Positions 3,069 to 29,537 of a stretch of DNA of 64,000 bases are shown one piece after another. Under the pieces are notes generated by a model that saw only the letters and a list, made by a program, of their open reading frames with translations, did not search any database and was not told where the DNA came from. Source of the stretch: Thermodesulfobacteriota bacterium (GTDB lineage Bacteria > Desulfobacterota > Desulfarculia > JACQYL01); assembly GCA_963675595.2 (NCBI GenBank), contig CAXXLZ010000001.1, forward strand, positions 768,001-832,000, given 5' to 3'. Position 1 is the stretch's first letter, and every line of letters starts with the position of its first letter. Both the position numbers and the translations under genes were made by a program.

Positions 3069-6000
3069 GAAGGGCATCCAAACGAAAATGGCGTTCCTGT
3101 TGATCGCCGTTATTACCGTTGTGCTCGCTTTTTTTGGGGTCTATCAGTACCTCGATATCCGGAATTCCCGCACCAGGGAGTTAAACGAACTCGCGGATTT
3201 CACGATCCGGAGGCTGGCCGAAAATCTGGTTATCCCCCTGTGGGAGGTGGATGAGCAGTGGGTGGAAGACATTATCGTCACAGAAATGTCGGACAAACGG
3301 ATTTACGCAATCTCCGTCACCGGTGAGGGCAACTTATCCGAGGCATTGAAGCGTGACAAGGCCGGGGGGATGGAAGCGCTCACCGAAGCCTTGGGCGATG
3401 GGTTCATTTCACGCCGCAGGGGGGTGCTGAAAGACAACGAACGCATTGGTTCCGTGGAGCTTTTCGTTACGCAGCGCTATATGGTGGAAGCCCTGAATCG
3501 TGAAATCGTCAAGATTATGCTGACGGTTCTGGTGCTCAATCTCATCCTCTTGGTCGCATTCTCCATAACGCTCAGAAGAACCATAACTTATCCGGTACAC
3601 CGTATTCTGAACATTGCCAACGCGATCGCGGGAGGAGATTTCAGCCGGCGTATCGATATCCGTACGGACGATGAAATCGGCCGTCTGGCGGAAGCCATCA
3701 ACGTTATGACTCGCTATCTGAAAGAAAGCTTTGAAGCGCTTCAGATCAAGAACATGGAACTCACACGACTGGACGAACTCAAGGACGAGTTCCTGGCCAA
3801 CACTTCCCACGAGCTCAGAACGCCCTTGAACGGCATTATCGGTATCGCCGATTCTCTCATCGACGGGGCTGCCGGACCATTGCCCGCAGAAGCGCGGAAG
3901 AATTTGGAGTTGATCGTCGCAGGCGGTCGGAGGTTGGCGAACCTGGTCAATGACATTCTCGACTTCTCGAAACTCAGGAACAAGGACCTAGTACTCAACA
4001 AGAAGCCCGTGGATATTCACGGGCTCACCAATGTGGTGATTTCCCTGTATCTCCCCCTGATTGAAAGTGGATCCGTGACCATTGTGAACTCCATTACCGA
4101 AAACACTACCTTTGTCTATGCCGATGAGAACCGGTTGTACCAAATAATGACGAACCTTTTAGACAATGCCGTCAAGTTTACGGAAAAAGGCACGATCACC
4201 GTTTCCGCGGAGCAAGAAGGCGACAAACTGGAGATCGTGGTGGCGGACACGGGAATCGGCATTCCCGAGAACCGGCTGGAGGCGATTTTCGAGGCCTTTG
4301 AGCAGGCCGACGGTTCCGTTGAACGGGAATACGGAGGCACCGGGCTCGGCCTATCCGTCACCAAGAGCTTGGTGGAACTCCATGGCGGCGACATCCGGGT
4401 GACTTCAAAGGTGGGAGAAGGCTCCTCCTTTGCGTTCACTTTGGACATTGCCGATTCCACCGGCGCAGATGCTCCGCGCACCGATGGGCCGCCCGTCATT
4501 ACCATGGAATCGGAGCAACGCCCCGTGGTAGGAGGGGAAGCTCGAGAACCGTGCCGGAAGACGTCCGAAGTCCGGCCGAACGATGCGCTTACAGGGATTT
4601 CAGACGCGAGGACACGAATCTTGGCCGTAGACGACGAGCCGGTCAACCTCAAGGTGATTCAAAACAATCTCGAGCTGACCGGGTTTTCCGTGTACACCGC
4701 AAATTCCGGCTTACAGGCCCTGGAAATGTGTGATGCCGTCCGGCCTGATTTGATTCTGCTGGATGTCATGATGCCCAGGCTCAACGGGTTTGAAACGGCG
4801 AGACGAATACGAATCAAATATCCCAAAGAAGTGCTTCCCATCATTTTTCTGACGGCGAAAGACCAAGTCAAAGACCTTATGGACGGCTTCGTGGTCGGCG
4901 GAAACGACTACATCATCAAACCCATATCCAAGAACGAGATTCTGGCGCGCATCGGTTTTCATCTGGACTTGAGGCGATCCCAACGGCGGCTGCAGGCGGC
5001 TGAGGAAAGCTACCGCAACTTGTTCAATGGGGCCCACGAAGGCATATTCCAAGCGGATCCGGACGGGCGCCTGATCAACGCCAACCCTTCCCTGATGGAT
5101 ATCCTGGGTTATGATGTCTCCGAGTCCATGGACTTTTCGAACATTAGTCTTCTTGAGCAGTGCTTTCCCGATCCGGAGGCGCGGGACGCCTTCCTTTCCG
5201 AATTGGCGAATGAAAGAGCCGTGATCGATTTTGAAGGCAAAGCCCAGCGTCGATCCGAGGATGAATTTTGGTTCTCCATTTCGGCCCATGTCGTGCAAGG
5301 TCAAACCGGAGAAATCGTTCGATTCGAAGGGTCGCTGGTGGACATTACCGAGCGTAAACGCAAAGAGCAGGTGGAAAGAGAAAAGGAGGCGGCGGAAGCC
5401 GCGAATCGAACCAAAGGTGCCTTCTTGGCCAACATGAGCCATGAGCTGAGAACCCCGTTGAATGCCATATTGGGATATTCACAGATATTGCAGCGAGCGA
5501 CCGGCTTGAATGAAGACCAGCAAGAAGGGGTTGCCATTGTGAAGGAGAGCGCGCGGCACCTGCTCACCCTGATCAACGATATTCTGGAGTTTTCCAAGAT
5601 CGAGGCCGGCAAACTGGTTTTGGCACCCGGGGAGATGGATCTTCATGAGTTCGTCGACGGCGTTGGCGGCTTTATGAGACTGAGCGCTCAACGGAAAGAG
5701 CTGCGGTTCGATATCGAAACGACGCCTGATACGCCACGATTCATCGTTGCCGATGAAAAACGTTTGCGTCAGGTTGTGCTCAACCTGATCGGCAATGCCG
5801 TCAAGTTCACGGAATCCGGTCGTGTTATATTTCGAGTGGAAACTATGGTACGTTCCGGGTGGGGTGAAGAGAAGTATGTGGCGCTTCGGTTCGAGGTGGA
5901 AGACACGGGGGTCGGTATCTCGAAGGACCAACTTGCCATAATTTTCAAACCGTTCGAGCAGGTGGGCGACGAACGCAGCAAAGCCTCGGGAACCGGGCTG

Positions 6001-7145: not shown

Positions 7146-10142
7146 CTATGAGGCGTTCTCCGTCTCCTCGCCCACGACAATGGAGAATTCCTTCTTCGTC
7201 GTGTTGCCGGCGCTGTCCACCGCCGTCACCGTGATAAGGTACGTGCCGGATTCGAAATGGACCGTGATCTTTCCGCCCCTGCCCATGAACTGCCTCTGCT
7301 TGCCCAGAAACCACAGAATTTGGTCGTCCGCCAAACGGCCGTCCTCAAGGTCCGAACCGTGGGCCTCGAAGGTCACCGGGCCCGGCGGCAGCGTCCGATC
7401 GAGTTCGGCTTCCCCTCCCGCATAAACCCGATACTGGTTCGGATTTTCTTCCGCCACGTCCGTTTGGGGAGAAAGGTCGGGACGTATGAGGGCTATGGTG
7501 GGCGGTTTGTCTTTCACGGTCAGGCTGCCCGGGGAATAGGCGGAAACCGTGTGAAACCCGTCGGTGGCCATGATTTTGAACCTGCCTGTAGTGCCGCCGG
7601 GGAGCCTATCCATATTGACTTCGTAGGAATCGCCCTGAACATCCCAGGCCACCGGAATCCAATTGGACTTCACCTTGGAGGAGGCCGCGACATTCGGATT
7701 GTAAAGGATCACGTAGGTCAACGGGTCGTCGTCCTGGTCCTTGGACTGCCAGACCAGTTTTTGGGTGCCGTTCCATTCCATATCCCCTCGAGGCTCGGTG
7801 ACGGCGACCTTGGGGCGATGCTTCGAAACGATGATCTGGTCCAGAACCTCCTTGTCCTTGCGCACGACGATACGATCGGGGGTCCCTTTGGCGGGCAAAG
7901 CGAAACGGAAATACACAGTATCCAACGGTGAGCCTTCGCTGTCCACAAAAATCGGCGTAAAAGGAACGGTGAGACTCCTTCTGCCGCCGGGATACTGGAA
8001 TTCCAGGATGTACTCTCCTTTGGAGTCGGGTTCGACGCTCGGAAGGCCCGATAATCTCATGACCGGGTTGAGCTGCACCAATCCCTGCCTATTCATCCGA
8101 CCGGATACGTAGTAGATCATGCGCATCCGTCCCGATCCGGGAAAGCCGGAGGGGTCGGGCTCGAATACGTCGAACATGCGTGTCCAACGGTAGGGCGAGG
8201 TCCAGGCTTGGGGATGGACGTACTTGAGGTGCACGCCGTCGAGTTGAATGGCCGTCAGGTAGGACATGATTTCGGGCCAGTACGGCGGGATTACGGTGAA
8301 TCGGCGTTCGTAGAAGCTGAGGCCCAGGATATCGTATCCATTGACCCAGGGAGGGCGGGTATCGAAGCCGAATTCGCGAATGTGAAATTCGGCATAGGGG
8401 GCTTCGACTCCGCCTTCGCTTTCCTCGTAAAGACGCACCCATTCCGGGTCCACGGTGCCCTCCCCGACAGTGCCGCCGGGGACGTGTTGAGCCCAGGTTT
8501 CCGGGTCGCCGATGTTGTGGTTGATTTCATGGGCCATATTGGTCGGGTTGTACAGATAGGTACCGTCCGCCCCTTCAACGAAGGTGCCGCCCCCCGCCAC
8601 GTGTCCGCATCCGGGGGTGGTGCATAAGGGGCTTTGAGTGGCCGCCTGGGCGAGATCCGCCGTAACGGTGTAGCCGTAGATCTGCTCGGGCATGGGGTCC
8701 ACGTCCAGGGCCGTCAGAAGGTCATAATACATAATGAGATTTTCGAGAATATCGTTGCGCAGGATCGCTCCGGTCACGACTCCCGGTGCGATGTCGAAGG
8801 GCGGGTATTCCCATCGCTCGAAATTCACGTCCGGCACGGGGTAAATCGTCTTCAAGTAACTTTCGGCGGCCGCGAGATGGGTTTCGTCCACCTGGACCGG
8901 AGCCTCCCAAGAGCCCTCATTGATGGGGATCGTCACGTAGTAGGGCGTCTTGCGTGGAACGAAAAATACCTCCGCGGATCGGGACTCGATTTCCTGATCC
9001 GCATACCGTGCTTTGGCGTAGAAGATCACATTGTCCGGCTTGATCCATTCATCGGGCAGCGCGAAGTTGGCCGTGTGAAGTAGATTGTCTCGTCCCTTCC
9101 GGATTCCATACCGGGCCTCCTCGGAGAAGGGGTCTACGAAGAACCGCAACGGAAATTCGAAATCCGGGTGCGCCCAGAACTCTGCGGAAAGAGGGGAGCC
9201 GGGCAGGTCTCTCCCGTCTCTGGTCCCGTATAAGGATACGGTGACCATTTGAGGGGAATCGTCCTCCCGTACCTCCACGTAAACTCGCACCGCGGTATCC
9301 TTGCGGGCGACCAACGGCAGGGAGTTGTCACGGTGCTGGACGGCCTGGGTGACCTCCAGGGGATCGTTGATGATCCCGTCCCCGTTGTCGTCCGTGTTTT
9401 CTTGGTCGAATTGAATCACCGCGCCCCCCGTGTTGGCCACGGCCGGCACGGTCACCAATTGGATGTCCAGCATGTCGGCGAAACCGCCCTCAGGGAAACG
9501 CTCTTCAAAAGCGGGCACGTTCGAATGCACACGGACACTGAGCAGAACGTGCTCCGTGGGCAGAAACACGTTGGGATCGGCGCCGATCTCTTCCAGGTCG
9601 ATGGCCATCTCCCAAACCCGATGGTTGAAACATTCCGACGATGAGGGCGGGTCGAGCGGCACTTCCGTGGCATCATCCGCAAAACATCCGAAGCCGGCGG
9701 CCAGACTGGAATAGATGGGGGTGTCGCGCAGGGGGGCGCGAACGCCGCTGTCGGAAAGGTAGTATTGGATGCGCAGTTCGCGGGAATTGTTCCAGAGCGT
9801 GTAGATCAGGTCCACTCCGGGTGTAAAATCGCCGTTTTCATCGACATCCACGACCACCTCGATCCAGTCACCCTCGGACGAGCTTGATCTTGGATTGTCA
9901 ATGTCGTCTTCGAGCACGTCCACAAGGAGGTACAAGCGCATACGATCATTCACCGCGGTGACGAACCCGTGGTCAAAGTCGATGCTGTTGGTTGCGATGG
10001 GCCACTCACCAAAATCGATTCGGCCGTCGATCACCGGGGGTCCCACAGCGCGGCCCGCCAAGAGGTCCAGAGCGTATGCATTCGAGAACCCCCAACCCCC
10101 CAAGGCGATCAACACCGTGACGACCCTAAGCACCGATTTCAT
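7146..10142 (-). CDS. Large secreted multidomain protein, probable zinc metallopeptidase (M66-like) with N-terminal CBM9/DOMON-like and C-terminal Ig-like domains
   Basis: Signal peptide, PPVIDGRIDFGEW, 'EVTQAVQ...LVARKDTAVRVY', HExxH motif AHEINH, terminal 'YLITVTAVDSAGN'. Confidence 0.6.
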   Translation of the reverse strand: MKSVLRVVTVLIALGGWGFSNAYALDLLAGRAVGPPVIDGRIDFGEWPIATNSIDFDHGFVTAVNDRMRLYLLVDVLEDDIDNPRSSSSEGDWIEVVVDVDENGDFTPGVDLIYTLWNNSRELRIQYYLSDSGVRAPLRDTPIYSSLAAGFGCFADDATEVPLDPPSSSECFNHRVWEMAIDLEEIGADPNVFLPTEHVLLSVRVHSNVPAFEERFPEGGFADMLDIQLVTVPAVANTGGAVIQFDQENTDDNGDGIINDPLEVTQAVQHRDNSLPLVARKDTAVRVYVEVREDDSPQMVTVSLYGTRDGRDLPGSPLSAEFWAHPDFEFPLRFFVDPFSEEARYGIRKGRDNLLHTANFALPDEWIKPDNVIFYAKARYADQEIESRSAEVFFVPRKTPYYVTIPINEGSWEAPVQVDETHLAAAESYLKTIYPVPDVNFERWEYPPFDIAPGVVTGAILRNDILENLIMYYDLLTALDVDPMPEQIYGYTVTADLAQAATQSPLCTTPGCGHVAGGGTFVEGADGTYLYNPTNMAHEINHNIGDPETWAQHVPGGTVGEGTVDPEWVRLYEESEGGVEAPYAEFHIREFGFDTRPPWVNGYDILGLSFYERRFTVIPPYWPEIMSYLTAIQLDGVHLKYVHPQAWTSPYRWTRMFDVFEPDPSGFPGSGRMRMIYYVSGRMNRQGLVQLNPVMRLSGLPSVEPDSKGEYILEFQYPGGRRSLTVPFTPIFVDSEGSPLDTVYFRFALPAKGTPDRIVVRKDKEVLDQIIVSKHRPKVAVTEPRGDMEWNGTQKLVWQSKDQDDDPLTYVILYNPNVAASSKVKSNWIPVAWDVQGDSYEVNMDRLPGGTTGRFKIMATDGFHTVSAYSPGSLTVKDKPPTIALIRPDLSPQTDVAEENPNQYRVYAGGEAELDRTLPPGPVTFEAHGSDLEDGRLADDQILWFLGKQRQFMGRGGKITVHFESGTYLITVTAVDSAGNTTKKEFSIVVGEETENAS

Positions 10143-10981: not shown

Positions 10982-13900
10982 CTACCGGGAACCGGCGCGC
11001 CGGTCTTCAATGCCCAGACGGGCCAGCAAGTCATCCGTTGGTTTGCCGTCGGCGGCGTACCCTCGCACCTTGTAGTATCGATCCAACAAGGCGTCGAGAG
11101 GGATCGTACGCCTTTGCTCGTCCGACTCCCGGTATTCGGAGAGCAGCCGCGGCGGGAGGATATCGTCTTTCCGACCGATTCCCTCGCGGGTGTTCATGTA
11201 GCGTTCCAGCACATGAATCCGTTCGCCTGCGGTGATGAACTCCTTGCAGGACAGGGGAGCGCCGGTCACTGAGGACCAGAGGTCTCGATAGAGGCCGAAA
11301 TCGATCAAACGTAACGCCGCCTTGGGTAGGTTCTGCATGATGAACCCCAGCAGAAAATGCGGTGTGTACTTGGTCAAGGGGGGTTCGAACACGTAGGCGA
11401 AGGCCGTGAATTGACAGGTCTGCAAGGAGTTCACGCAGCAGTACAGGTTTTCCAGGAATGCGATGAAGTCCGCCTTGGCGCCCACACGAAACGGATTCAG
11501 CAGGCCGAACAGCACTTCCAGGGCCACGGGATAGGCGGACAGGTGACAGCCGCCGCGATTGGCCACGGCATAGGACAGCGCCTGCCCAAAGCATCCTCTC
11601 GGATCATAGGCGGACACTTCCATTCCCTTCACGTGCACGGCGAAATCCTCACCGCCGTATTTCTCCGCCAGTGCACGGCTGCCCATGCCCATTTCCGCGC
11701 CGAAGCCGCGTGCGTATCCGATATCGTACAGCGCGTCGGCCACGCCCTTAGGTTCGCCGAACCTGAGCTCGCTCCGAATGAGCCCCTTTTCGGTGGCTTC
11801 CATCACCCAGGCGAAGGTCCCACCGGTGGAGATGGTATCCATGCCCATGTCGGCGCAGATTCGGTTCCACTCGGCGATGACGTCGCCGTCGAAGACGCCC
11901 AGGTTGGACCCGAGAAGACCCACGGTTTCATACTCGGGGATGGGAAGCGACTTGCCCTCGAAGGTTCCTTTATGGCCGCACATGATGGAGCAGGGGATGC
12001 AGAAATGCGGTTTGGAGGCGTGCTTTTCCGCGAGAGTTCGTCCGGAAAGCTTCATGCCCTCGTCGTGCCGGCCGTCCTGGAAGTTGCGAACCGGCAGGAT
12101 GTTGTTGTTATTCGTGAACTCCGTGTTGGACGCGGTGCCGAAGTTGCGCAGTACACGCGACGTCATGTCGTTGGAACGGATGTAGGATAGGGCACGTTTC
12201 TTCGCTTTGCGGAACGCGGCCTCGTTCTTGGGAAGAATCTTGGTGTAGCCGCCCTTGGCGACAATGCCTTTGACGTTTTTAGAGCCCAAGACCGCACCCA
12301 GGCCGCCGCGTCCCAGAAACCGGTCGCCGGACCTCACATTAGCAAACCGCACCCCGTTTTCGCCGGCCGGACCGATGACCAGTGCCGCAGTCCCTTTCTC
12401 GCCCGTCATTCGCGCCTGGGCTTCCGAAGTGGTCAGGCCCCACAAATCGCCGGCATCGTGAAAGGTTACCTTGTCCCGATCGACTTCGATGAATATCTTG
12501 GTTTCGGACTTTCCTTTGATGATGATGCCGTCCCAACCGGCGGTCTTCAAGGCCATGCCGAAGGGGCCTCCGCAAGAGGAAGCGGTCATGATTCCGGTGA
12601 GCGGGGATTTGGTCACCGCGGCGAAACGACCGGTGCAGGGCGCGCCGGTGCCCATGAGCACTCCGGGCATGACAACCACCATGTTTTCCTCGGATAATGG
12701 ATCGATTCCCGGCTCGACGCGATCGTAATAGAGCTTCAGGCCGAGCCCCTTGCCTCCCAGATATGCTCGGCGCTCCATTTCACTCACATGGTGGACTTGC
12801 CAGGTGCGCGTGGTCGGATCAACTTCCAGAACCCGGTTGGACGGCCCGGATTGTTCCCTCGCCCCCTCGCCGCCATAGGCTTGATTCAGCACGTCCAAGG
12901 CGTCATGCAGGTCCATCTCCACCGGGTTGAATACCAGCGAACCGTCGTTGATTGCGGCCTCCGCCACCGCTTCGAGCTGATCCCGATCCACTCCGGCTTC
13001 GGTCAGCGTCAAGGGCAAACCGCACAACTCGTGTAATGTTTCGCGCAGGTCCTCCACCAATTCGATGGTCTTGTGTGCTCTCTCCGCTTGGGGGGTCGTC
13101 GCGTAGATTTCCGGACCGCCCAGAGGGAGCAGCAGTCCTCCGATCCACTCGGCCGCCTTGGGCAGGTTGTACCTCAGTCCGTGGGGCAGAAAGATGGACA
13201 TGGCCACCCCATGCGGAACGTGAGCCAGACTTCCCACCGCGTGTCCGAGACTGTGCACCATCCCCACCATGGAATTGGAGAAGGCCGCCCCGGCCATACA
13301 GGCGGCGTTGGCCATGGCCAGCCTTGCATCGACGTCTTTTCCGTTTTTGACCGCCTTCACCAGGTTGTCCCGGATCAGGGAGATGGCGGCCAACGCGTGT
13401 GCGTCGCTGATGGGATTATTCTGCAGGCAGATGTAGGCTTCCATGGCGTGACTCAAGGCGTCCATGCCGGTGGCCGCCGTGATGCGGGGCGGCATGGTCG
13501 ACATCATACGGGTGTCCAGAACCGCCACTTTGGGCAACAGGTGATAAGAGGTGAACAGCATCTTCATGCTCTTCTTGGTATCGTTGATCACGGCCACCAG
13601 GGTCACCTCCGACCCGGTACCCGATGTGGTGGGGACAACGATCAGCGGCTTCATGGGTTTTTTCAACATCTCCGCTCCCATGAACCGGGAAAGATCGTCC
13701 GATTTCTCCGTGATGACGATATTGACCCCTTTGGCCGTGTCGATGGCCGATCCGCCTCCCACGGCAATGAGGGAATCGCAGCCGGCGGCACGGTAAATCT
13801 TGGAGATTTCGTTCACCGTTTCCACGGAAGAATCCGGTGGTGTTTCATCAAAGACGGCGCCGATGGTCACGCCGGAATCCGCAAACGCGCCTTTCACGAT

Positions 13901-14062
13901 GTCTATGAGACCGGCGCGTACCACGCCTTTGTCCGTGATGATCATGGGGCGTGCGGCGGCGAGTTGCTCCAATTCGAAGGGAAGATTCTCCAGCGCCTTA
14001 TGACCGGAAATGATCTTCACCGGGTTGTGGAACTCATAGTAGGGTGGAATCCTGGTATTCAT
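10982..14062 (-). CDS. Fusion of iron-containing alcohol dehydrogenase (N-terminal) and W/Mo aldehyde:ferredoxin oxidoreductase (C-terminal)
   Basis: Fe-ADH motifs GGGSAIDTAK, PTTSGTGSE, DALSHAMEAY, HSLGH..HG. AOR motifs YLGGKGLG, KSPLTG, IGPAGE, GRGGLGAVLGSKN, CIPCSIMC, EYET, DTIS, NRGGCH. Confidence 0.9.
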   Translation of the reverse strand: MNTRIPPYYEFHNPVKIISGHKALENLPFELEQLAAARPMIITDKGVVRAGLIDIVKGAFADSGVTIGAVFDETPPDSSVETVNEISKIYRAAGCDSLIAVGGGSAIDTAKGVNIVITEKSDDLSRFMGAEMLKKPMKPLIVVPTTSGTGSEVTLVAVINDTKKSMKMLFTSYHLLPKVAVLDTRMMSTMPPRITAATGMDALSHAMEAYICLQNNPISDAHALAAISLIRDNLVKAVKNGKDVDARLAMANAACMAGAAFSNSMVGMVHSLGHAVGSLAHVPHGVAMSIFLPHGLRYNLPKAAEWIGGLLLPLGGPEIYATTPQAERAHKTIELVEDLRETLHELCGLPLTLTEAGVDRDQLEAVAEAAINDGSLVFNPVEMDLHDALDVLNQAYGGEGAREQSGPSNRVLEVDPTTRTWQVHHVSEMERRAYLGGKGLGLKLYYDRVEPGIDPLSEENMVVVMPGVLMGTGAPCTGRFAAVTKSPLTGIMTASSCGGPFGMALKTAGWDGIIIKGKSETKIFIEVDRDKVTFHDAGDLWGLTTSEAQARMTGEKGTAALVIGPAGENGVRFANVRSGDRFLGRGGLGAVLGSKNVKGIVAKGGYTKILPKNEAAFRKAKKRALSYIRSNDMTSRVLRNFGTASNTEFTNNNNILPVRNFQDGRHDEGMKLSGRTLAEKHASKPHFCIPCSIMCGHKGTFEGKSLPIPEYETVGLLGSNLGVFDGDVIAEWNRICADMGMDTISTGGTFAWVMEATEKGLIRSELRFGEPKGVADALYDIGYARGFGAEMGMGSRALAEKYGGEDFAVHVKGMEVSAYDPRGCFGQALSYAVANRGGCHLSAYPVALEVLFGLLNPFRVGAKADFIAFLENLYCCVNSLQTCQFTAFAYVFEPPLTKYTPHFLLGFIMQNLPKAALRLIDFGLYRDLWSSVTGAPLSCKEFITAGERIHVLERYMNTREGIGRKDDILPPRLLSEYRESDEQRRTIPLDALLDRYYKVRGYAADGKPTDDLLARLGIEDRRAGSR

Positions 14063-14098: not shown

Positions 14099-14626
14099 CT
14101 ATTTTCCAAACGGCACGCCCAAAGCATAAATCTTGATCCGAACCCACTGCTTCCGCAGCGGCATGGGAGGGAGTCGTTTCATGATGCGCCTGTTGATGAA
14201 GGAAGGGAACAGGTGGCCCATGAGGATGTTCACGCACCGGGTAAATACCATGGCGTAGGCCAATATGCCCGCGACGCTGATGCGGTGTTCCGCGAAGCCC
14301 TGCGGGGTGCCGATCTGTGCGGTGAGCACCATGAAGGCGCTTTCCGTGTTCTTGAAGCTGATCGTGAGCTCCGCGTCTTCCGGTCCTCCGCCCAGGTATC
14401 GGAGCCCTGCGTCGCTCTTCAGGAGGGTCATGGCGGCACCACAGGGCGACACTCTCATTTGAATCCTGAATCCCTCCGGGATGGACGCGAGTTCCCGTTT
14501 CACGTCCGGGTCATGCATGGATGCCGACTGCAACCCCCGTCCCATGATGAAAAACACCATGCGGATGATCAGGGTCTTCAAACGCTTGGTCCCCGGTGGG
14601 ATCGGAGGAAATTTCAGCTCCTGCAT
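14099..14626 (-). CDS. SCP2 (sterol-carrier)-like hypothetical protein
   Basis: AGGAGG RBS before ATG 14626. 'AELTISFK...AFMVLTAQ...AEHRISVAG' resembles the SCP2 fold. Co-oriented just upstream of the ADH-AOR gene. Confidence 0.55.
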   Translation of the reverse strand: MQELKFPPIPPGTKRLKTLIIRMVFFIMGRGLQSASMHDPDVKRELASIPEGFRIQMRVSPCGAAMTLLKSDAGLRYLGGGPEDAELTISFKNTESAFMVLTAQIGTPQGFAEHRISVAGILAYAMVFTRCVNILMGHLFPSFINRRIMKRLPPMPLRKQWVRIKIYALGVPFGK

Positions 14627-14904
14627 GAAACCTCCTTGGCGGCCTCGGTTCGTCTTTTTCATGGCGATTCGTTTTATCCCACCCTTCCGTGTGGAGGAGG
14701 AGCCATTCGCGCGATCGGACGCGGCCGCAAGGGTCCGCCTTCTGGAACAAACTCAGTATACTCACAACTCCGTTCCCTGGTCACCGGTTTTCGGAGAGAG
14801 CGAGCGGTTCTACCGCGAACGCAATCCTCGGCCGTGAATCAAATCGGATGGATTGTTCACCGTCCTTTTGTGGTGACATAAGAGATATTTCCACTGTCAT
14901 GCAC

Positions 14905-14936
14905 AAAAAAGCGGGAATCTTCGTTGAGATTCCCGC
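14905..14936 (-). terminator. Rho-independent terminator downstream of the papain-like protease gene
   Basis: Minus strand reads GCGGGAATCT-caacga-AGATTCCCGC followed by TTTTTT. Confidence 0.8.
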
Positions 14937-15015
14937 CTGTCGTGAGTTATCGCTGTAATTATTTCACGAAACCCGTTGAGATTAGAGTCGGGCTCCGGAG
15001 CCTCTCAAAGAACCC

Positions 15016-17559
15016 TCATTCCATGCCCACCGGCTCGAATGTCTTCGAGATCATGATGTTCAGATCGGGCCGGCTGGACAGCACCGCCTTTGCGGAATCC
15101 GTATCCGTCACGGTGATGGTCAGCTGCTCACCCGTATGGGCCATGTGGGGAGCGGAAAAGACGTTTTTGAAAAACTCGCCCAAAAACGGGTGGAAATCCT
15201 CACCGTCGTAGGTATACACCGCCAGGGCGGAACCCACTTCATATTCCTGCAGATACAGGTTGAACCCCAGGTCCGCGCACTTCCAAATGCCCGAATGCAG
15301 GGTCTCTTTTGCGGGGAAGGTCTTGGTAATGGGTACTTGAACGGTGACGGGAGGCGTCTTCGTGTTGTCCGTGAGTACGGCGGTTCCCTGGGTGTCGGAA
15401 GAAAACACGATTTTCAAGGTTCGTTGCTGCTTCGGGTCCATGGAATCGGCCTGGAAGGTCCCGGAGTTGAACATGTCCGCCAGGAAGGCATAGAGGGAAG
15501 TGGGGTCCCCGGCGTAAATCACCACGGTGGACGCCGTGTCGTAATGCTGCACGTAAAAGTTGTAGTCCACTTTGTCCACGTTTCCCTTCCAGATGCCGGA
15601 ATAGGGAAGGTCGGCGATGCGAAGGCCGAAATGACCGGGCCCGCTGAGCACACCCAGTTCCCAGGTGTGATAGTAGAAGTCGGCGGAGCTGCCCCAAATC
15701 CAAAGGTGGTGCTGTTCCTCCCCATCCACCGCCGCGATGCTTCCGGAACTCTGCCCCAGTTCCGCCGTCACCGGGTAGTAGCCTCCGGCGGAAAGAGAGC
15801 CCATATCCTGTACGTCGAAGAGTTGTTCCGAGCCTCCATCGAAGTACAGTTTGTATTGATCCAGCCACCTCGCCCGCTCGAAAGAGGCGGATTCGTGCCC
15901 TATGTCGATATGGGTCCGGTATAGCAGCGCACCGTAATCGTGTCCGCTCCACGTCGTGGTGCCGGCTGCGAAATTGGCGTGAATCTGCGGATTGGAGGAG
16001 TTGATGAGTTCGAGCTCGAATTCCTGGCCGTTCAACTCCACGGAGTCGCCGTAAGCGTCGGGAGCACCCTCCGGGTTGTCGAAGTCGATGTATAAACGGA
16101 TCATATAACCCGCGCCGTCCAATATTTTTCCGGTCACCTCATGAGCGACGCCGTCGGACCCATAGTACGAACCCAGCCGCGCGTAGGAGTTGGCCGTGAC
16201 GTCCGAGAATTCGCCCGCCTGGACGTCCGTGGGGGGCATGGGTCTCGTTCGCCGGATGACGAGACGTCCGAGGTGTCCGTCATGATCCATATTCCATTCC
16301 CCCATCCACATGGCTTCGGGATTTTGACCCAGGAAGGGGCTCCTGACGCCGAGGACCACCGCGCCGCCGCCCGCCTGTTTCTCGATGTAATCGTAGGGAA
16401 CCCACAGGTAGGGAAGGTCGGGACCCCAGGAATTCTTGAGCAGGAGGAGCTTGCGTGTTCTGTCGTAGCCGATGATGAGGAGGGCGTGCCCGCTGACGGC
16501 ATCCTCGGTGTGGTTGGTGAAATCGCAAATGGGGTTCCCGTCGTCGTAGGTCTGTCCCGTATTACAGTCCAGATAGGGCTGATTGGCGCCACCCGGCTGG
16601 GACGCCGGGGGAGCGGCCTCCCAATTCAATCCGATGTAGACCTCCTTCTGATCCGCCAGGGTGTCCTCGATCAGCGAACTGTCCCTGGCCTCCGTCATGG
16701 TAAGAATCAACACACGTGTTGGTCCGTATTCGGCATTCTTCCGAGCGTCCAGGGGGATGAGCCGTTCATCGAATTCGTACGCGTCCAGCGCTTCCTGAGT
16801 CAGGGTGATTGCGGTTGCATTGCCCTTGTCGTCGAACTGATCGCACACCATACCCGAGTCCGTAACGATCGTGGCCCGGTCGGCGTCGCCGTGATAGGTC
16901 CCGTACTTATAGAGCTGGACATTGGCTCTGCCGAAATAAGGGGCATACTTCTCCAGAGGCAGGAACAGTCCGTTGGTGGCCGCCAAGGCGTGCCCGGGCA
17001 ACGTATGATCGGTATGGGTTCCGCACTGGGAAGTCCAGTTGTCGTGCATGAGTTCCGGCCGGTACGAGGCGTGGCTGGTGAAGACAATATGGATGAAATA
17101 TTCTTCCGAAAGATCGAACTCCTCACAACCCGCGTAACATTCAGGCGTGACGCAAATGAGGCTGCAATCGTTGGTGATGCCGTATTCCTGCCAGCGGGTC
17201 CATCCATCGGTGTACCGGTTCAGTTCGTGCAACCCATAAGTGCGGACGTACGCCGCCTCGAGGGCGCCGAGAAAGGCGAAGGACGGGCAGGAGCCGCGGT
17301 TGTTCTGGTCCTTCACTTCCGTTTGATAGGCCTTCAAGTCCAAATAGTCCGCGCTCGCGGGAGCCAGGGAAGCTCTAAATTCTTCCAACAGTTTCTTCTG
17401 TTCGGGCGAGACGGAGCGAATGGTCAGGCTTTCGGCGGGAACCAGGGTCGGCGGATCGTCGTATGCTCCCACGGCCTTGCCGGAATGGGCCTGTCGGGTC
17501 GGAACCAATGTGCAGAGCATTGCGACGACAAGAAGCAATCTCACAAGACCTGTGCGCAT
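15016..17559 (-). CDS. Secreted papain-like (C1A) cysteine peptidase with C-terminal accessory domains
   Basis: AAGGAG RBS, signal peptide, catalytic motifs QNNRGSCPSFA, DLSEEY, SGHALLIIGYD, LKNSWG. Confidence 0.85.
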   Translation of the reverse strand: MRTGLVRLLLVVAMLCTLVPTRQAHSGKAVGAYDDPPTLVPAESLTIRSVSPEQKKLLEEFRASLAPASADYLDLKAYQTEVKDQNNRGSCPSFAFLGALEAAYVRTYGLHELNRYTDGWTRWQEYGITNDCSLICVTPECYAGCEEFDLSEEYFIHIVFTSHASYRPELMHDNWTSQCGTHTDHTLPGHALAATNGLFLPLEKYAPYFGRANVQLYKYGTYHGDADRATIVTDSGMVCDQFDDKGNATAITLTQEALDAYEFDERLIPLDARKNAEYGPTRVLILTMTEARDSSLIEDTLADQKEVYIGLNWEAAPPASQPGGANQPYLDCNTGQTYDDGNPICDFTNHTEDAVSGHALLIIGYDRTRKLLLLKNSWGPDLPYLWVPYDYIEKQAGGGAVVLGVRSPFLGQNPEAMWMGEWNMDHDGHLGRLVIRRTRPMPPTDVQAGEFSDVTANSYARLGSYYGSDGVAHEVTGKILDGAGYMIRLYIDFDNPEGAPDAYGDSVELNGQEFELELINSSNPQIHANFAAGTTTWSGHDYGALLYRTHIDIGHESASFERARWLDQYKLYFDGGSEQLFDVQDMGSLSAGGYYPVTAELGQSSGSIAAVDGEEQHHLWIWGSSADFYYHTWELGVLSGPGHFGLRIADLPYSGIWKGNVDKVDYNFYVQHYDTASTVVIYAGDPTSLYAFLADMFNSGTFQADSMDPKQQRTLKIVFSSDTQGTAVLTDNTKTPPVTVQVPITKTFPAKETLHSGIWKCADLGFNLYLQEYEVGSALAVYTYDGEDFHPFLGEFFKNVFSAPHMAHTGEQLTITVTDTDSAKAVLSSRPDLNIMISKTFEPVGME

Positions 17560-17735
17560 GGTATGGACTCCTTTATGCTTGGGTGAGATTCGGGAAGGCA
17601 TCCTTGAAAGTCGATGCCTTTCATTGCATTATCCTGCGGGGCTTCTTCCCTTATTTCTCCCCAATAGATTGCTGAATCATTGCGTCTTTCCGGTACTTGG
17701 CCCGGAAACCGTACCGAACCTTCGTGATTGACTTA

Positions 17736-21446: not shown

Positions 21447-22550
21447 TCAGGCAAACTTGTCATAGAATATTTGTTCCTTGGGAACGCCCATTTGGGTAAG
21501 CTGCTGCTCGACGGACTCCACCATGGCCGGATTTCCGCAGATATAGGCTTCCACATTGGAGGGGTCCTTAACGAGATCGGGGATGACATCGGTAACACGA
21601 CCCCGCGGGCCTTCCCATTGCTCATGTTCTTCGGGTCTGGAAAGGGTGTGTACGACCTTGAGATCGGGAATCCGTTCTTTCAGCCGGTTCAGTTCCTCGA
21701 GGTAAAACAGGTCTCCCATACGGCGGGCCCCGAAGACCAGAAAGACTTTGCGGCGAATGTTTTCGTCCGCCAAGTGGTGCAGGATGGACATGATGGGGGC
21801 GAGTCCGGAGCCTGTGGCCACCAACAGAACATCCCGCTCCGAATCTCTGAGGTAGAATTCTCCATGGGGACCGTTAAGAAGCGTTTCGTCCCCTTCGTTC
21901 AGATGTTCATGCACGTAAGTCGTGGCGATGCCTTGGGGCACACGCGTAATGATCAGGTGAATTTCTTCGCCTTTGCTCGCCGGTGAAGCGATGGAATAGG
22001 CGCGATAAACCGGCTCGTCCGAATCTCCGTATTCGGGGATTCGAAGCTGGACGAACTGGCCGGCCTTGAATTCCATCACGGGCGGATCGACGAGTTTCAA
22101 GCGGACCTCCTTCATATCCTCGGCGATGTCTCGAAGTCCCGATATCCTGGCCGTGAACTCCTTAATGTAAAACAACTCGGGTGGAATGTGGATGGCCAGA
22201 TCGTTGCGAACCTTCACCTGGCAGGAAAGTCGAACTTGGTCCTCGATTTCCTTCTTGTCCAGATAAGGCGTCTCCGTGGGCAAGAGGGGACCGGCTCCTT
22301 CGGAAACCTTGACCTTGCAGAGACCGCAGCTTCCTCTCCCGCCGCAAGCCGAAGGAATGAAAATACCTTCGTCGGTCAATATCCCCAGCAGGTGTCCTCC
22401 CCCTTGGACCACCAGTTCCCGATCGCCTTCATTGATGGAAATCCTGCACTCTCCATAATCTGCGAAATAGGAATCGGCGGTTTCGAGGCACAAAGCGAGG
22501 AACCCCGCGAGTGCGCTCAATGCCAGAATTCCTACGAAAACACTCACCAT
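21447..22550 (-). CDS. nqrF: NqrF-like membrane-anchored [2Fe-2S]/FAD NAD(P)H oxidoreductase
   Basis: N-terminal TM helix, CGGRGSCGLC...RLSC, RAYSIAS, ATGSGLAP, YICG, terminal DKFA. Confidence 0.85.
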   Translation of the reverse strand: MVSVFVGILALSALAGFLALCLETADSYFADYGECRISINEGDRELVVQGGGHLLGILTDEGIFIPSACGGRGSCGLCKVKVSEGAGPLLPTETPYLDKKEIEDQVRLSCQVKVRNDLAIHIPPELFYIKEFTARISGLRDIAEDMKEVRLKLVDPPVMEFKAGQFVQLRIPEYGDSDEPVYRAYSIASPASKGEEIHLIITRVPQGIATTYVHEHLNEGDETLLNGPHGEFYLRDSERDVLLVATGSGLAPIMSILHHLADENIRRKVFLVFGARRMGDLFYLEELNRLKERIPDLKVVHTLSRPEEHEQWEGPRGRVTDVIPDLVKDPSNVEAYICGNPAMVESVEQQLTQMGVPKEQIFYDKFA

Positions 22551-22560
22551 GGATCGGACC

Positions 22561-23154
22561 TCACTGCATCTGGATCATGCCGCTGAAACCCATGAATGCG
22601 AGGGCCATCAGACCGGCAATAATGAGGCTGATCCCGGGACCCTCCAAAGGGGTCGGGATTTTGGCTTTGGCGAGCTTCTCCCGGATGCCGCCCATGGCCA
22701 CGATGGCCAAAGTCCATCCGATTCCTCCTCCGGCACCGTAGGCCACGGATTGGACAAAAGAGTAGTTACGGATGATCATGAAAAGGCAAACCCCAAGAAT
22801 TGCACAATTCACGGTGATCAATGGAAGAAATACGCCCAGGACGACGTAAAGTACCGGAGAATAGCGTTCAATGACCATTTCAACCAACTGAACAAAAGCG
22901 GCGATAACGATGATAAACGCGATGAAACGAAAGTGCTCAAGGCCGAAGGGCACGAGGAGTTGGTGATAGACGAGATGGTTCAGCCCGGACGTGCACGTCA
23001 TCACGAAAATGACTGCCAAGCCCAAGCCGAGTGCCGGCTTCACCTCCCTCGATATGGCCAGGAAGGAGCACATACCCAGGAAGTTGGTCAGCAGGATGTT
23101 GTTCGTAAAGATCGCCGCGAAAAAGATTACGAACGCGGTGGTGCCTAGTTCCAT
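22561..23154 (-). CDS. nqrE: NqrE/RnfA family membrane subunit
   Basis: Cys-containing motifs FLGMCSFLAIS and LPLITVNCAILG. Confidence 0.88.
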   Translation of the reverse strand: MELGTTAFVIFFAAIFTNNILLTNFLGMCSFLAISREVKPALGLGLAVIFVMTCTSGLNHLVYHQLLVPFGLEHFRFIAFIIVIAAFVQLVEMVIERYSPVLYVVLGVFLPLITVNCAILGVCLFMIIRNYSFVQSVAYGAGGGIGWTLAIVAMGGIREKLAKAKIPTPLEGPGISLIIAGLMALAFMGFSGMIQMQ

Positions 23155-23164
23155 GGGAAATCCT

Positions 23165-23800
23165 TCAACGTGCGGCCGTTTCCGCGCCGCCTTCCTTCTT
23201 GTCGGATTTGGATCCGGCGGCGCGGACGATCCAAATCACCACGGCCAGCATAAAAAAGGCTCCGGGCGGCATTACCATTATCGTCCAGCGGGTCATGTCC
23301 GATGGGGTTACCGGGTAACCGAAAACCGTTCCGAACCCCAGAAGTTCCCTGACGAAGGCCACGGCGAGAAGTACCAGCGCATATCCCAATCCCGAAGCGA
23401 TACCGTCGATGAAACTCGGCCACGGAGGATTGTTCCTGGCGAAGGCTTCGCATCTTCCCATAATGATGCAGTTGGTGATGATGAGCCCCACGTATGCGCC
23501 CAACGCTTCGCTGATATCCGGCAGGTAGGCCTTCAGCAAAATATCCACGATGATTACGTAGGAAGCGATGATCAGGGTTTGAACCATCATCCGGATGCGT
23601 GAGGGCGTCACCTTTCTCAAAATGGAGACGGTGACACAGGATAGAGAGGTGACGAAAATAAGGCTGACGCCCATGATCAGGGTATTCAACATGAGATTCG
23701 TTACGGCCAGAGCCGAACAAATTCCGAGGATCTGCCTGAATACGGGGTTCTCTTCCCACAACCCCTTGATCATGATTTTTCGAGTGCCGATGTGACCCAC
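23165..23800 (-). CDS. nqrD: NqrD/RnfE family membrane subunit
   Basis: NP..QILGICSALAVT and VGLIITNCIIMGR. Confidence 0.88.
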   Translation of the reverse strand: MGHIGTRKIMIKGLWEENPVFRQILGICSALAVTNLMLNTLIMGVSLIFVTSLSCVTVSILRKVTPSRIRMMVQTLIIASYVIIVDILLKAYLPDISEALGAYVGLIITNCIIMGRCEAFARNNPPWPSFIDGIASGLGYALVLLAVAFVRELLGFGTVFGYPVTPSDMTRWTIMVMPPGAFFMLAVVIWIVRAAGSKSDKKEGGAETAAR

Positions 23801-23816
23801 AATTGACCTCTTGACC

Positions 23817-24470
23817 TTATTTGGACCCTATTCGTTTTCCCGACAACTCGGCGAGTTGGGGCAGCACCCTGTGGATACTCGCGTTTATGAGCCGCTCGAC
23901 GGCTTTGCTGGTACCCGTGGCGCCGGTGACGGCATCGACTTCGTTCGCCCCTTTGACGGCTTCGGGCGGGCGCAGCCGGAAAAATACTTCGTCCGGGGCC
24001 GGCGATGAGGGAAGCATTTTACCTTTGAATTGCTCGGTGAACCAGGATTCGCTGATTCTACCACCCAGTCCGGGTGTCTCGGAATGCTTGTAAAAGGCGA
24101 CACCAAGGACCTCTCGAAGATCGGGACCTAGACCCATCATGCCGTGAATGGGACCCCAGAATCCCGGTCCCGACAGTTGAAAGGCATAACCCACGGTCCC
24201 GGCGCCGTGATCCGATTTGCCGATGTATACGGGACCGGACTCCAATTGCACCGTTTTCACCCTGTTCTTGAACAGCTCCAACACCCCCTGACCTTCGACA
24301 CCGGGAGGCACCGAAATATTCAGAACTTTGAGGATGATCCCCTCTAATTTGATCCGGTCGTTGGTTTCGATTCTGTCCTGGTTCAATCCATACACGATGC
24401 TGACCACCGTGCCGAAGAACAGGGTGATCAGGAACATGTACAAAACCGAAAATGCCCTGTTTCGTTTCAT
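23817..24470 (-). CDS. nqrC: NqrC/RnfG family FMN-binding subunit
   Basis: GPGFWGPI, HSETPGLG, and flavinylation motif DAVTGAT. Confidence 0.88.
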   Translation of the reverse strand: MKRNRAFSVLYMFLITLFFGTVVSIVYGLNQDRIETNDRIKLEGIILKVLNISVPPGVEGQGVLELFKNRVKTVQLESGPVYIGKSDHGAGTVGYAFQLSGPGFWGPIHGMMGLGPDLREVLGVAFYKHSETPGLGGRISESWFTEQFKGKMLPSSPAPDEVFFRLRPPEAVKGANEVDAVTGATGTSKAVERLINASIHRVLPQLAELSGKRIGSK

Positions 24471-25435
24471 GCCTTTTTTTCACCGCGGTGCTGTAGTTCT
24501 TTGACGGCGATATCCATCACTGCCGCGAAGGTGTTCATGAAAAGGACGGAAAACATGAATCCTTCGGCGAAACTCGAATAGGCTCGAAAGGTCATGCACA
24601 GGCCCCCCACGATAAACCCGTAGATCCATTGGGCCGGTTTTGTTTTGGGCCCGGTGATGGGTTCGGTGACCACGAAAAAAGCGCCGAACAGAAAAGAGCC
24701 GGCCAGCATTGAAGTCAGGGGATCCTGCACGTTCACGCCGGCCCACCACAGGAGGATGCTCACAATGGCGGCTCCCAGCAGGCACGACACGGCGAGACGC
24801 CAGGGAGCGGATTTCTTAAAGATGATGTAGGCACCGCCGATGAGTATCAACCAAGCGGCGGTTTCCCCCAGGGAACCGGACACCGTGCCCCAAAACAGAC
24901 CCTCCGTGGATACGTTCCCTCCTTCGGCGAGTACCTGCAAGGGGGTGGCGCGACTCACGGCGTCCACGGACGGAGTCCAGTGAAGAAAACCTCCGGGGAA
25001 TTGGGAAAAGGGCTCGACCCACTTGTTGGTCATGGCCGTGGGAAACGCTATGTAGATGAAACAGCGGCCGGCCATGGCCGGATTAAACGCATTGAAGCCG
25101 AAGCCCCCAAAGACCATCTTTCCGAATACCACCGCAAACAATATCCCTACCAGGGCCATCCAGAAAGGGATCGTGGGCGGCAGACTCAGAGTATAAATCA
25201 GTGAGGTCACCAGCACGGCGGAAGTGATGGGCTTGCCTTGTTTCAACGTGAACAGACCTTCGGCAATCACGGCGGCCGCAGTGACCATGAGCAGGAGAAC
25301 CAACGACCGAACTCCGAAAAAGAAAACCGAGGCCGCCAGACACGGCGCCAGACCGTAACACACGTGCACCATCATGGGTTGCACGAGGAATCTCTTCTTG
25401 CCCTTGGGGGCTGCTTTGGCTTCCTGTGGGGTCAC
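24467..25435 (-). CDS. NqrB/RnfD family membrane subunit (short, RnfD-sized)
   Basis: KMVFGGFGFNAFNPA, flavinylation motif DAVSRATPL, GSLGET, TEPITGP. 322 aa. Confidence 0.88.
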   Translation of the reverse strand: MTPQEAKAAPKGKKRFLVQPMMVHVCYGLAPCLAASVFFFGVRSLVLLLMVTAAAVIAEGLFTLKQGKPITSAVLVTSLIYTLSLPPTIPFWMALVGILFAVVFGKMVFGGFGFNAFNPAMAGRCFIYIAFPTAMTNKWVEPFSQFPGGFLHWTPSVDAVSRATPLQVLAEGGNVSTEGLFWGTVSGSLGETAAWLILIGGAYIIFKKSAPWRLAVSCLLGAAIVSILLWWAGVNVQDPLTSMLAGSFLFGAFFVVTEPITGPKTKPAQWIYGFIVGGLCMTFRAYSSFAEGFMFSVLFMNTFAAVMDIAVKELQHRGEKKA

Positions 25436-25551
25436 ATTCCGATCCGAAAGTTAACGATTCTCCGCGGCGAACTCCGATCCCGCACGTCCCGCACACCACC
25501 GCAGTTTAGATTTCGTTGCAGGCGATTTCAACAGAAGAAGAAATATCCGGA

Positions 25552-25580
25552 ATTATATATCTTGGAGGGCCTGATGAGAA
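25552..25580 (-). promoter_or_regulatory. Candidate sigma70 promoter for the nqr-like genes
   Basis: Minus strand TTCTCA-N17-TATAAT in the 236-bp spacer between lpdA and the NqrB/RnfD gene. Confidence 0.45.
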
Positions 25581-25671
25581 AGCCTTGCGAAGGGCCGGAT
25601 GTATTCGGCGAGATCGGCCCTCCCTACCGGTGCGCCCGGCGCAGCGGGCGTCACTCGCCGGTCTGACGCGG

Positions 25672-27120: not shown

Positions 27121-27197
27121 GAAATGCTACCTCCCGTGTTTGAATACCTCGCTCAAAACCGTTCCTGATCCGATGCGGATCGGCGGCAAGCCGCGAA

Positions 27198-28541: not shown

Positions 28542-28553
28542 GGGTTCTCCTCG

Positions 28554-29537
28554 CTATTTCACGCTCAAGACGTTTCGGGCCGCTTTGGTGATCCGTTGCG
28601 CATCGGGGAGGTAGTCGTTCTCCCTTGCGAACAGAGGAATCACGATATCGAAGCCCGTGACGCGGGCAATGGGGGCCTCCAGATAGAAGAAAGCCTTTTC
28701 CATGATTCGGGTGATAATCTCCGCACCCGGTCCAAAGCTCCTGGGAGCTTCGTGAACGATCACGGCCCTTCCGGTCTTGCGTACCGATTCGGCGATCGGC
28801 TCGTCGTCCAGGGGAGAAATCGTCAGCAGATCGATGACCTCACATTCCACACCGTCGGATTCCTTCAGTTGCTCGGCCGCTTCGAGGGTAGGGCGCATCA
28901 TGGCCCCGTAGGCCACCATGGTCAGGTCCTTTCCTTCCCGGACAACTCGGGGCTTCCCGATGGGGAAAGTCTCCTCTTCTTCGGGGACCTCTTCCCTGAA
29001 TGCTCGATACACAGCCTTGGGTTCGTAAAAAATTACCGGGTCGGGGTCCCGGATGGCGCTGATAAGTAGAGATCGGGCGATTCTCGGGCCGGACGGGATC
29101 ACCATTTTGAGGCCGGGCGTATGAGCCCAATAGGCTTCGCGGCTCTCGGAATGGTGCTCAAGGGCGCGTACGCCCCCACCGTAGGGCGTCCTCAATACCA
29201 TGGGAACCTGATATTTCCCCTGGGAGCGTCTTCGGATGCGGGCGGCGTGGCTTTCCAGTTGATGGAAATTCTCATAAGTGAAACCCGAAAACTGAATTTC
29301 ACAGATCGGCCGCAGGCCATAGATCGCCATGCCGATGGACATGCCGACAATGCCTGATTCAGCCAAGGGTGTGTCCATGACCCGATTTTCCCCGAACTTC
29401 CCGACAAGGCCCTCCGTGACCCGGAAAACCCCCTCGTCTCTGCCCACGTCCTCGCCGAGGAGGATGACACGGTCGTCTTTTTCCATCTCCTGATGCAACG
29501 CCAAATTGATCGCCTGGACCATGTTCATTTTAGCCAT
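28554..29537 (-). CDS. pdhB: 2-oxoacid dehydrogenase E1 beta subunit
   Basis: GEDVG..GVFRVT, DTPLAESGI, EIQF, ALEHHSES. Confidence 0.93.
   Translation of the reverse strand: MAKMNMVQAINLALHQEMEKDDRVILLGEDVGRDEGVFRVTEGLVGKFGENRVMDTPLAESGIVGMSIGMAIYGLRPICEIQFSGFTYENFHQLESHAARIRRRSQGKYQVPMVLRTPYGGGVRALEHHSESREAYWAHTPGLKMVIPSGPRIARSLLISAIRDPDPVIFYEPKAVYRAFREEVPEEEETFPIGKPRVVREGKDLTMVAYGAMMRPTLEAAEQLKESDGVECEVIDLLTISPLDDEPIAESVRKTGRAVIVHEAPRSFGPGAEIITRIMEKAFFYLEAPIARVTGFDIVIPLFARENDYLPDAQRITKAARNVLSVK

Follow-up and report, generated by a model that had tools for sequence, protein, structure and literature searches.

Can a single polypeptide carry an alcohol all the way to its acid without coenzyme A (CoA), and if so, which alcohol? 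The question is raised by one gene in a 64,000-nucleotide stretch of a genome assembly of a Thermodesulfobacteriota bacterium (contig CAXXLZ010000001.1, positions 768,001 to 832,000; hereafter the window), in which an iron-containing alcohol dehydrogenase (Fe-ADH) and an aldehyde:ferredoxin oxidoreductase (AOR) share one open reading frame (ORF). An earlier, sequence-only reading had taken this gene for a true fusion and for a CoA-independent analogue of AdhE that channels the aldehyde between its domains and links NAD(P) with ferredoxin. The fusion is real. With a small upstream gene, whose modelled product has the SCP2 lipid-carrier fold, it probably constitutes a two-gene operon through which an anaerobe oxidizes long-chain primary alcohols to fatty acids without CoA, a reading to which we assign a probability of about 0.6.

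Fe-ADH and AOR fused in one chain

The ORF contains no internal stop, and the Pfam models Fe-ADH (residues 14-184), ADH_Fe_C (195-396), AFOR_N (410-604) and AFOR_C (620-1018) are all covered essentially end to end, with E values from 1e-46 to 1e-110; in the ADH half, PF00465 and PF25137 score 156 and 165 bits against gathering cut-offs of 31 and 27. The GC content at third codon positions is uniform over the gene (0.76 in the ADH, 0.78 in the linker and 0.75 in the AOR part), and no compositional anomaly was found around the locus. The linker codons 397-405 include no stop and no ATG, GTG or TTG. The claim that the junction lacks an in-frame start thus stands for the linker itself, but not for the segment just ahead of it, where ATG383, TTG389 and GTG391 lie in the last ADH helix. 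By-eye inspection found no ribosome-binding site at the usual spacing before these codons, from which, as far as the sequence goes, the AOR may be started internally. The linker was also considered as a retained ribosome-binding site and rejected, as the spacing is too short.

Among the best 120 of 2003 matches to the fusion protein is P0002, a JGI metagenome protein of 1023 residues that is 82% identical to it across 99% of the length. P0002 is joined at the same junction, so that a sequencing error in the window assembly cannot account for the fusion. An assembly error that deleted a stop codon, as might be suspected because none of the best 80 of 532 confirmed GTDB loci of the window AOR clade carries an ADH-AOR fusion, is barely credible, given that the start codon in the linker is gone as well, so that one base change would not suffice, and that P0002 shares the fusion point with an in-frame linker shorter by one residue, both proteins having Ala at the old AOR start-Met position (Ala401 in the window protein).

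The ADH half possesses Asp44, GGGS at 102-105, TTxGTGSE at 145-152 and the metal ligands D201, H205, H270 and H284, matching the cofactor, metal-ligand and NAD-selecting motifs defined in the available part of PMC8465190, and is predicted from Asp44 to be NAD-type. In the AOR half, the 4Fe-4S cysteines C688, C691, C695 and C883 and the second-shell residues T643, E712, Y819 and H840 align with C288/C291/C295/C494 and T243/E313/Y427/H448 of the Pyrococcus furiosus enzyme (1AOR), the latter four being the conserved AOR second shell in the accessible text of a 2025 review (PMC12096430); D742-T743 is also present. Judged by these residues, the view of two complete enzymes in one chain is supported, both halves being catalytically intact. 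Membership of the YdhV and BamB clades was rejected, since all four second-shell residues are present and PRK09849 scores 159 bits against 868.

The AlphaFold2 model of the whole fusion, built on a 98-row alignment, has a mean confidence (pLDDT) of 95.6 and a pTM of 0.77, with a short, ordered linker of pLDDT about 80. The modelled AOR half matches 9mqx, 1aor and 9g7j at TM scores of 0.94-0.95 and the ADH half matches 3bfj at 0.97, and no entry among the structures listed spans both halves. In the ESM Atlas, the ADH half retrieved nothing other than Fe-ADH. Prediction of a complex between the separate halves (13-396 and 402-1016) scored 0.00 in two runs, a score that counts neither for nor against an interface.

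A hydrophobic stretch right after the fourth cluster cysteine exceeds its counterpart in canonical AORs by about 30 residues (64 from C883 to G946, against a median of 34). The insert is long in all 104 aligned rows at 42% identity or above, whereas it is short in 72 of the 93 rows below; its mean hydropathy is +0.55 versus -0.20, and it is helical in the model. Lys450 of P. furiosus AOR is replaced by Ser or Asn throughout the window AOR clade (S842 in the window protein).

Table 1. Position in the window, strand and supporting evidence of the fusion gene, its parts and the associated features.
Feature	Position	Strand	Evidence
Fe-ADH::AOR fusion gene, 1026 aa	10982..14062	minus	uninterrupted ORF, Pfam domains, full-length fused homolog, AlphaFold2 model
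N-terminal iron-containing ADH domain, residues 1-396	12875..14062	minus	Pfam, motifs, model vs 3bfj
Linker, 9 codons, residues 397-405, GGEGAREQS	12848..12874	minus	codon reading, 17 split junctions
C-terminal tungsten/molybdenum (W/Mo)-bis-pterin AOR domain, residues 406-1026	10982..12847	minus	Pfam, 1AOR alignment, model
Clade-specific hydrophobic three-helix stretch, residues 886-924	11291..11407	minus	alignment span, hydropathy, model helices
SCP2-fold lipid-carrier-like protein, 175 aa, upstream of the fusion	14099..14626	minus	ATG with AGGAGG, model, Foldseek, VIA
Terminator-like hairpin of 12 pairs with a T tail, at the end of the gene that precedes the SCP2-like one	14909..14938	minus	consensus match only

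The SCP2-like partner and the split module

The sequence-only reading had left out a third component, the gene that ends 36 nt upstream of the fusion gene. Its start was taken at an ATG preceded by an AGGAGG site, the ORF caller having placed it at 14662. The protein has no Pfam match and does not reach the PF02036 cut-off; among 24 family members, 4 match the Pfam SCP2 model weakly (best E 0.0048, under the cut-off), and a search of the PDB with the family sequences gave at best human SCP2 at an E value of about 1.2. In the structure model (pLDDT 82.7), the protein is predicted to have the SCP2 lipid-carrier fold with extra C-terminal helices at residues 142-173: the top 10 Foldseek rows are all SCP2-fold proteins (best UbiJ-SCP2/SCP2, E 3.8e-5), and comparison with human SCP2 gave a VIA Z score of 10.6 and a root-mean-square deviation of 3.7 over 118 aligned residues. 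A conserved hypothetical protein thereby gains a fold and a likely role. The terminator-like hairpin suggests that this gene and the fusion gene form their own two-gene unit, although such matches number 8 in the window against a shuffle mean of 5.1; a promoter scan gave 4 weak matches versus 2.0 expected.

The same genes are found unfused in the relatives. With S for SCP2-like, D for Fe-ADH, O for AOR and a dot between separate genes, 17 of the 80 GTDB loci have the window order (S.D.O 14, S.D.O.D 2 and D.O 1, the last at a contig end). The others are O.D.S.D (10), O.D (2) and O alone (38), together with 13 loci in which AOR and SCP2 are fused (OS.D.D 6, D.O.OS.D.D 2, OS.D 4 and OS 1). SCP2-like domains are thus found in 39 loci, Fe-ADHs in 41 and both in 38. 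In the 17 split loci, 27-99 nt lie between the stop codon of the ADH gene and the equivalent of G406, and in the window 27 nt separate Y396 from G406. The fused ADH nests in the tree within ADHs of split operons, with a closest relative at 68% identity among those listed, and comparison with 18 separately encoded ADHs and 25 unfused AORs revealed no fusion-specific insertions besides the linker and a C-terminal tail. The order of the split neighbors, the nesting and the lack of new loops point to a recent in-place fusion of neighboring genes, and by these comparisons the fusion is a lineage-specific tether of genes that are adjacent but separate in relatives.

Among the longer matches to the SCP2-like family, all 26 carry AFOR_C (25 full AORs and one fragment), and P0128 is an SCP2-ADH fusion, so that SCP2, ADH and AOR are found fused in every pairing: AOR-SCP2, SCP2-ADH and ADH-AOR. 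When the 61 locus ADHs with more than 280 aligned residues were compared, 37 kept both motifs and 24 did not, and 22 of these 24 are second paralogues with an intact copy alongside or nearby (L027, L028, L029, L035-L037, L039, L042, L046, L050, L051, L053, L054, L059, L060, L062, L063, L067, L074, L075, L078 and L080). The motif-less paralogue is possibly a pseudo-enzyme subunit. The retention of such dead paralogues, together with the fusions between each pair of parts, suggests that the products assemble physically. In L025, the sole ADH lacks the NAD and metal motifs, and P0121, P0125 and P0129 each contain two Fe-ADH stretches, which may be fusions of a dead and a live copy.

Hosts of the related loci include Smithella, Desulfobotulus, Desulforegulaceae, Desulfosudaceae and Leptospirales, groups that use long-chain fatty acids or alkanes. 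Recurrent neighbors include AMP-binding genes of the acyl-CoA ligase type at 9 loci and TetR genes at 11. A GMC oxidoreductase next to the AOR at L034, L049 and L068 perhaps replaces or supplements the Fe-ADH, and a ThiS/MoaD-like gene lies near the AOR at 9 loci (L004, L054, L059, L062, L063, L067, L070, L075 and L078). Two proteins have what looks like a built-in electron acceptor: in P0258 an AOR from the clade with the insert is followed by a C-terminal 4Fe-4S dicluster, and in P0124 a close ADH carries ferredoxin-type domains.

Sequence searches showed that the window protein is one of several fusions of Fe-ADH and AOR. Including it, at least 14 of 383 proteins are ADH+AOR fusions (10 ADH-AOR and 4 AOR-ADH), a floor taken from the best 120-150 matches per search, so that at least 13 further fusions exist. 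The fused state requires 5 changes on a 197-row AOR tree and 4 on a 116-row ADH tree (FastTree). A single origin was rejected at a p-AU of 0.03 for the ADH and 1e-46 for the AOR in reduced IQ-TREE sets that retained 10 of the 14 fusions, P0068, P0091, P0108 and P0347 being omitted and each lying near a kept row. From these phylogenies we count at least four origins of ADH+AOR fusions, which occur in both domain orders. The other fusion lineages draw on ADH clades that are 31-38% identical to the window ADH, so that their substrates may differ. In one AOR lineage, P0107 and the group of P0059, P0068, P0091, P0094 and P0108 are 72-74% identical, with a related ADH fused in reverse order. P0273 and P0297 combine AOR with an OMPdecase/HUMPS-family domain, possibly a hexulose-6-phosphate synthase, which hints at a formaldehyde-handling fusion.

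Elsewhere in the window, the operon is flanked on the minus strand by genes for two secreted-looking proteins, one of 998 residues (7146-10142) with only a weak Ig-like match and one of 861 residues (15016-17601) with a weak papain-family match. Farther along (21447-30636, minus strand), a 2-oxoacid dehydrogenase operon (E1a, E1b, E2, E3) leads directly into Nqr/Rnf-type genes of the B/D, C, D, E and F types, with no NqrA-type gene between.

Substrate, mechanism and alternatives

The evidence for a long-chain substrate comes from aerobes. A tblastn search of a plasmid collection retrieved Acinetobacter ADHs 53% identical to the window ADH, and in two Acinetobacter regions a gene for a 177-residue hypothetical protein lies directly upstream of the ADH gene, after lipB. 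This protein is homologous to the window SCP2-like protein (hhalign 99.9%, E 4e-31). Aeromonas has the same SCP2-ADH pair, again with no AOR, and its ADH is 48% identical; the AOR-less pairs of the two genera lie at L081:5455-7176, L082:5457-7176 and L083:about 3478-5170. In Acinetobacter Tol 5, the pair corresponds by synteny and gene length to TOL5_32390 (534 nt) and yiaY_3/TOL5_32400 (1185 nt), one operon after lipB (PMC13572102). According to the available sections of that paper, the two genes rise on hexadecane (log fold change +3.26/+3.47, false discovery rate about 1e-8) while beta-oxidation goes up and fatty acid synthesis down, do not change significantly on ethanol (-0.33/-0.16) and are lower on toluene and phenol; its authors proposed hexadecanol oxidation for yiaY_3 from transcription, and these sections do not discuss the partner gene. 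In aerobes, the SCP2-like and Fe-ADH pair is a candidate for a hexadecanol dehydrogenase of two components. The published Adh6 primer is an exact match to the A. baumannii copy of the ADH orthologue. A1S_2702, which we take to be the same gene as ADH6, showed no ethanol induction in the partial account available and was up on mucin with lipases and fatty-acid genes. ADH6 itself was not induced by ethanol, on which only Adh4 mutants failed to grow, and its mutant was peroxide-sensitive with reduced growth on 1-butanol (PMC8465190, available part).

Based on these observations, we propose that the Fe-ADH half would oxidize R-CH2OH to R-CHO with NAD+ and that the AOR half would oxidize R-CHO to R-COOH, its 4Fe-4S cluster relaying the electrons to a ferredoxin whose gene lies elsewhere; ferredoxin is presumed as the acceptor, as is tungsten rather than molybdenum as the metal. 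Oxidation of an aldehyde to its acid by AOR is strongly favorable and NAD-linked alcohol oxidation is uphill. The second step would pull the first and keep the aldehyde low. The SCP2-fold protein may bind the water-insoluble acyl chain and present it to, or pass it between, the two sites, the hydrophobic AOR insert may take the chain from the carrier or anchor the enzyme at the membrane, and the acid may enter beta-oxidation through an acyl-CoA ligase. Conversion among alcohol, aldehyde and acid without CoA, as the sequence-only reading had it, agrees with two intact sites and no PF00171 domain. Its NAD(P)-ferredoxin link holds in part: NAD on the ADH (from Asp44) and a 4Fe-4S/pterin AOR are present, but NAD and ferredoxin would act in series on the same carbon, and nothing suggests electron transfer between them.

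Several observations weigh against the proposed long-chain oxidation. The fused lineage comprises the window protein and P0002, each a singleton cluster among the matches listed, and is therefore rare. No SCP2 and no ADH were found in the DNA examined at 38 of the 80 related loci, so the AOR can work alone; where both flanks reach at least 2.5 kb (47 loci), 28 have an SCP2-like domain and a close ADH and 19 lack SCP2. No ferredoxin, tungstate transporter or acyl-CoA ligase was found among the 47 distinct window ORFs scanned. The case for a long-chain substrate depends on an aerobe with no AOR, in which a 53%-identical orthologue is induced, and no measured long-chain activity was found for enzymes of the window ADH, AOR or SCP2 clades. 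The oxidative direction is presumed, since the sequence does not fix it, and the oxidative-stress and 1-butanol phenotypes of ADH6 fit aldehyde detoxification too.

Of the alternatives, the one that survives best, although it is unlikely, is a short-chain version of the AdhE analogue that the sequence-only reading had put forward, with a tunnel that would lead the aldehyde directly from one domain to the other. Both halves are intact, the linker is short and ordered, the pTM of 0.77 exceeds a rough estimate of about 0.62 for freely moving domains, and the repeated independent fusions parallel those of AdhE and BdhE (PMC12454647, available part). However, the orthologous ADH responds to hexadecane and not to ethanol, the SCP2 partner and the hydrophobic insert point to lipids, and an ethanol-type role is probably not the right one. 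The absence of new loops and the existence of both domain orders, even among AORs as similar as those of P0107 and the P0059 group, favor a tether over a tunnel, and the aldehyde would more likely be handed over by carrier-mediated proximity than through an AdhE-type channel.

Detoxification of lipid-derived aldehydes, in which the ADH would reduce and the AOR oxidize the same aldehyde rather than act in series, is improbable and ranks next. It would agree with the peroxide sensitivity of ADH6 mutants and with the opinion in the accessible text of PMC12096430 that many AORs detoxify aldehydes, but it is at odds with induction specific to hexadecane, with repression on toluene and phenol, and with the available finding that ADH6 is not raised by peroxide in the wild type (PMC8465190). 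Slightly behind it, and doubtful, is the reverse module, in which ferredoxin would drive the reduction of free fatty acids to the alcohols without ATP or CoA, either to dispose of electrons or to make wax esters or ether lipids. AORs are capable of reducing acids that are not activated (PMC12096430, accessible text), NADH-linked aldehyde reduction is favorable, and an SCP2 carrier is compatible with either direction; against this, growth on hexadecane raises the Acinetobacter pair and beta-oxidation alike and lowers fatty acid synthesis, and no wax-ester or ether-lipid gene was found in the 43 recurrent neighbor families scanned.

Beyond the proposed oxidation of long-chain alcohols by this operon, a broader proposition, judged as one whole, is possible but held tentatively: that the SCP2-like protein, the Fe-ADH (often with a catalytically dead paralogue) and the insert-bearing tungsten AOR constitute an undescribed, widespread fatty-alcohol-oxidizing complex whose carrier protein ferries the long-chain aldehyde; that its SCP2-ADH core is the Acinetobacter hexadecanol dehydrogenase and its AOR-coupled form the route to fatty acids in anaerobic degraders of alkenes, waxes and fatty alcohols; and that the fusion, belonging to a series of at least four convergent ADH::AOR fusions, adds a third solution to those of AdhE and BdhE, as a single-chain catalyst between fatty acid and fatty alcohol that depends on neither CoA nor ATP. 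If true, the fusion would be a natural single-chain alcohol-to-acid enzyme that needs neither CoA nor ATP and saves the second electron pair as low-potential ferredoxin, and, run backwards, it would be a candidate fatty-alcohol catalyst. Because the fused form is rare, it carries limited ecological weight; the split module is the common one, and we regard the wider SCP2-ADH-AOR module as a more valuable lead than the fusion itself. The most useful yield of the finding is a candidate, open to testing, for how sulfate reducers, syntrophs and Acinetobacter oxidize long-chain alcohols.

Comparison with known systems

No description of an ADH-AOR fusion or of an SCP2-ADH-AOR module was found in the literature searched, in line with the earlier statement that no characterized example is known, although either may be mentioned elsewhere, for example in surveys of the WOR clade. 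The SCP2-like protein shares its fold with UbiJ, the C-terminal domain of SdsA1 and MFE-2, carriers that hold hydrophobic substrates beside enzymes, but it has extra C-terminal helices, misses the Pfam SCP2 cut-off and is partnered with ADH and AOR. Long-chain alcohols are oxidized by LaoAB of Pseudomonas aeruginosa, in which LaoA is a GMC flavoprotein that needs a small partner protein, and by long-chain ADHs of Geobacillus thermodenitrificans; both are likened to the window module by description only. The closest counterpart in gene order is the Acinetobacter YiaY_3/ADH6 gene with its 177-residue neighbor, which shares a 53%-identical ADH and a homologous upstream gene in the same order, but belongs to an aerobe, has no adjoining AOR and a partner annotated as hypothetical, and its long-chain role was suggested from transcription.

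The AOR half resembles AORs in the strict sense (P. furiosus 1AOR, Clostridium autoethanogenum 9G7J and WOR 9MQX) in fold, cluster cysteines and second-shell T/E/Y/H, but is only 34% identical and differs in the 30-residue hydrophobic insert and the Ser/Asn in place of Lys450 of 1AOR. The two-enzyme AOR and ADH pathway of acetogens has the same net chemistry as that proposed for the fusion. No AOR bearing ADH or SCP2 is among the architectures given in the accessible text of the 2025 review, from which the word "fusion" is absent (PMC12096430).

Like AdhE, a spirosome-forming fusion of a CoA-acylating aldehyde dehydrogenase (ALDH) and Fe-ADH, the window protein unites an Fe-ADH and an aldehyde-oxidizing enzyme in one chain for a two-step alcohol/aldehyde conversion. 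Unlike AdhE, it has an N-terminal ADH, no PF00171 domain and an AOR in place of the ALDH, hence no CoA and a ferredoxin-type acceptor, and it scores 253 bits on NCBIfam PRK13805 against a cut-off of 951. BdhE, a second ALDH::ADH fusion (Konno et al. 2025, PMC12454647; PDB 9ldl), is likewise an independent fusion of neighbors, and its separate origin indicates that the alcohol/aldehyde enzyme pairing fuses repeatedly; BdhE differs in having an ALDH-superfamily domain and reducing acetyl-CoA, and neither "ferredoxin" nor "AFOR" occurs in the available part of the paper. That part also describes AdhE and BdhE as channeling through fusion-specific loops (PMC12454647), and the window protein has no such elongated interface loops. 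Filing it as AdhE or BdhE was rejected because the ALDH domain is absent: the fusion is functionally like both and a member of neither family. It extends the convergent fusion seen in AdhE and BdhE to an unrelated aldehyde-oxidizing family and offers for comparison at least four origins, with the domains in either order.

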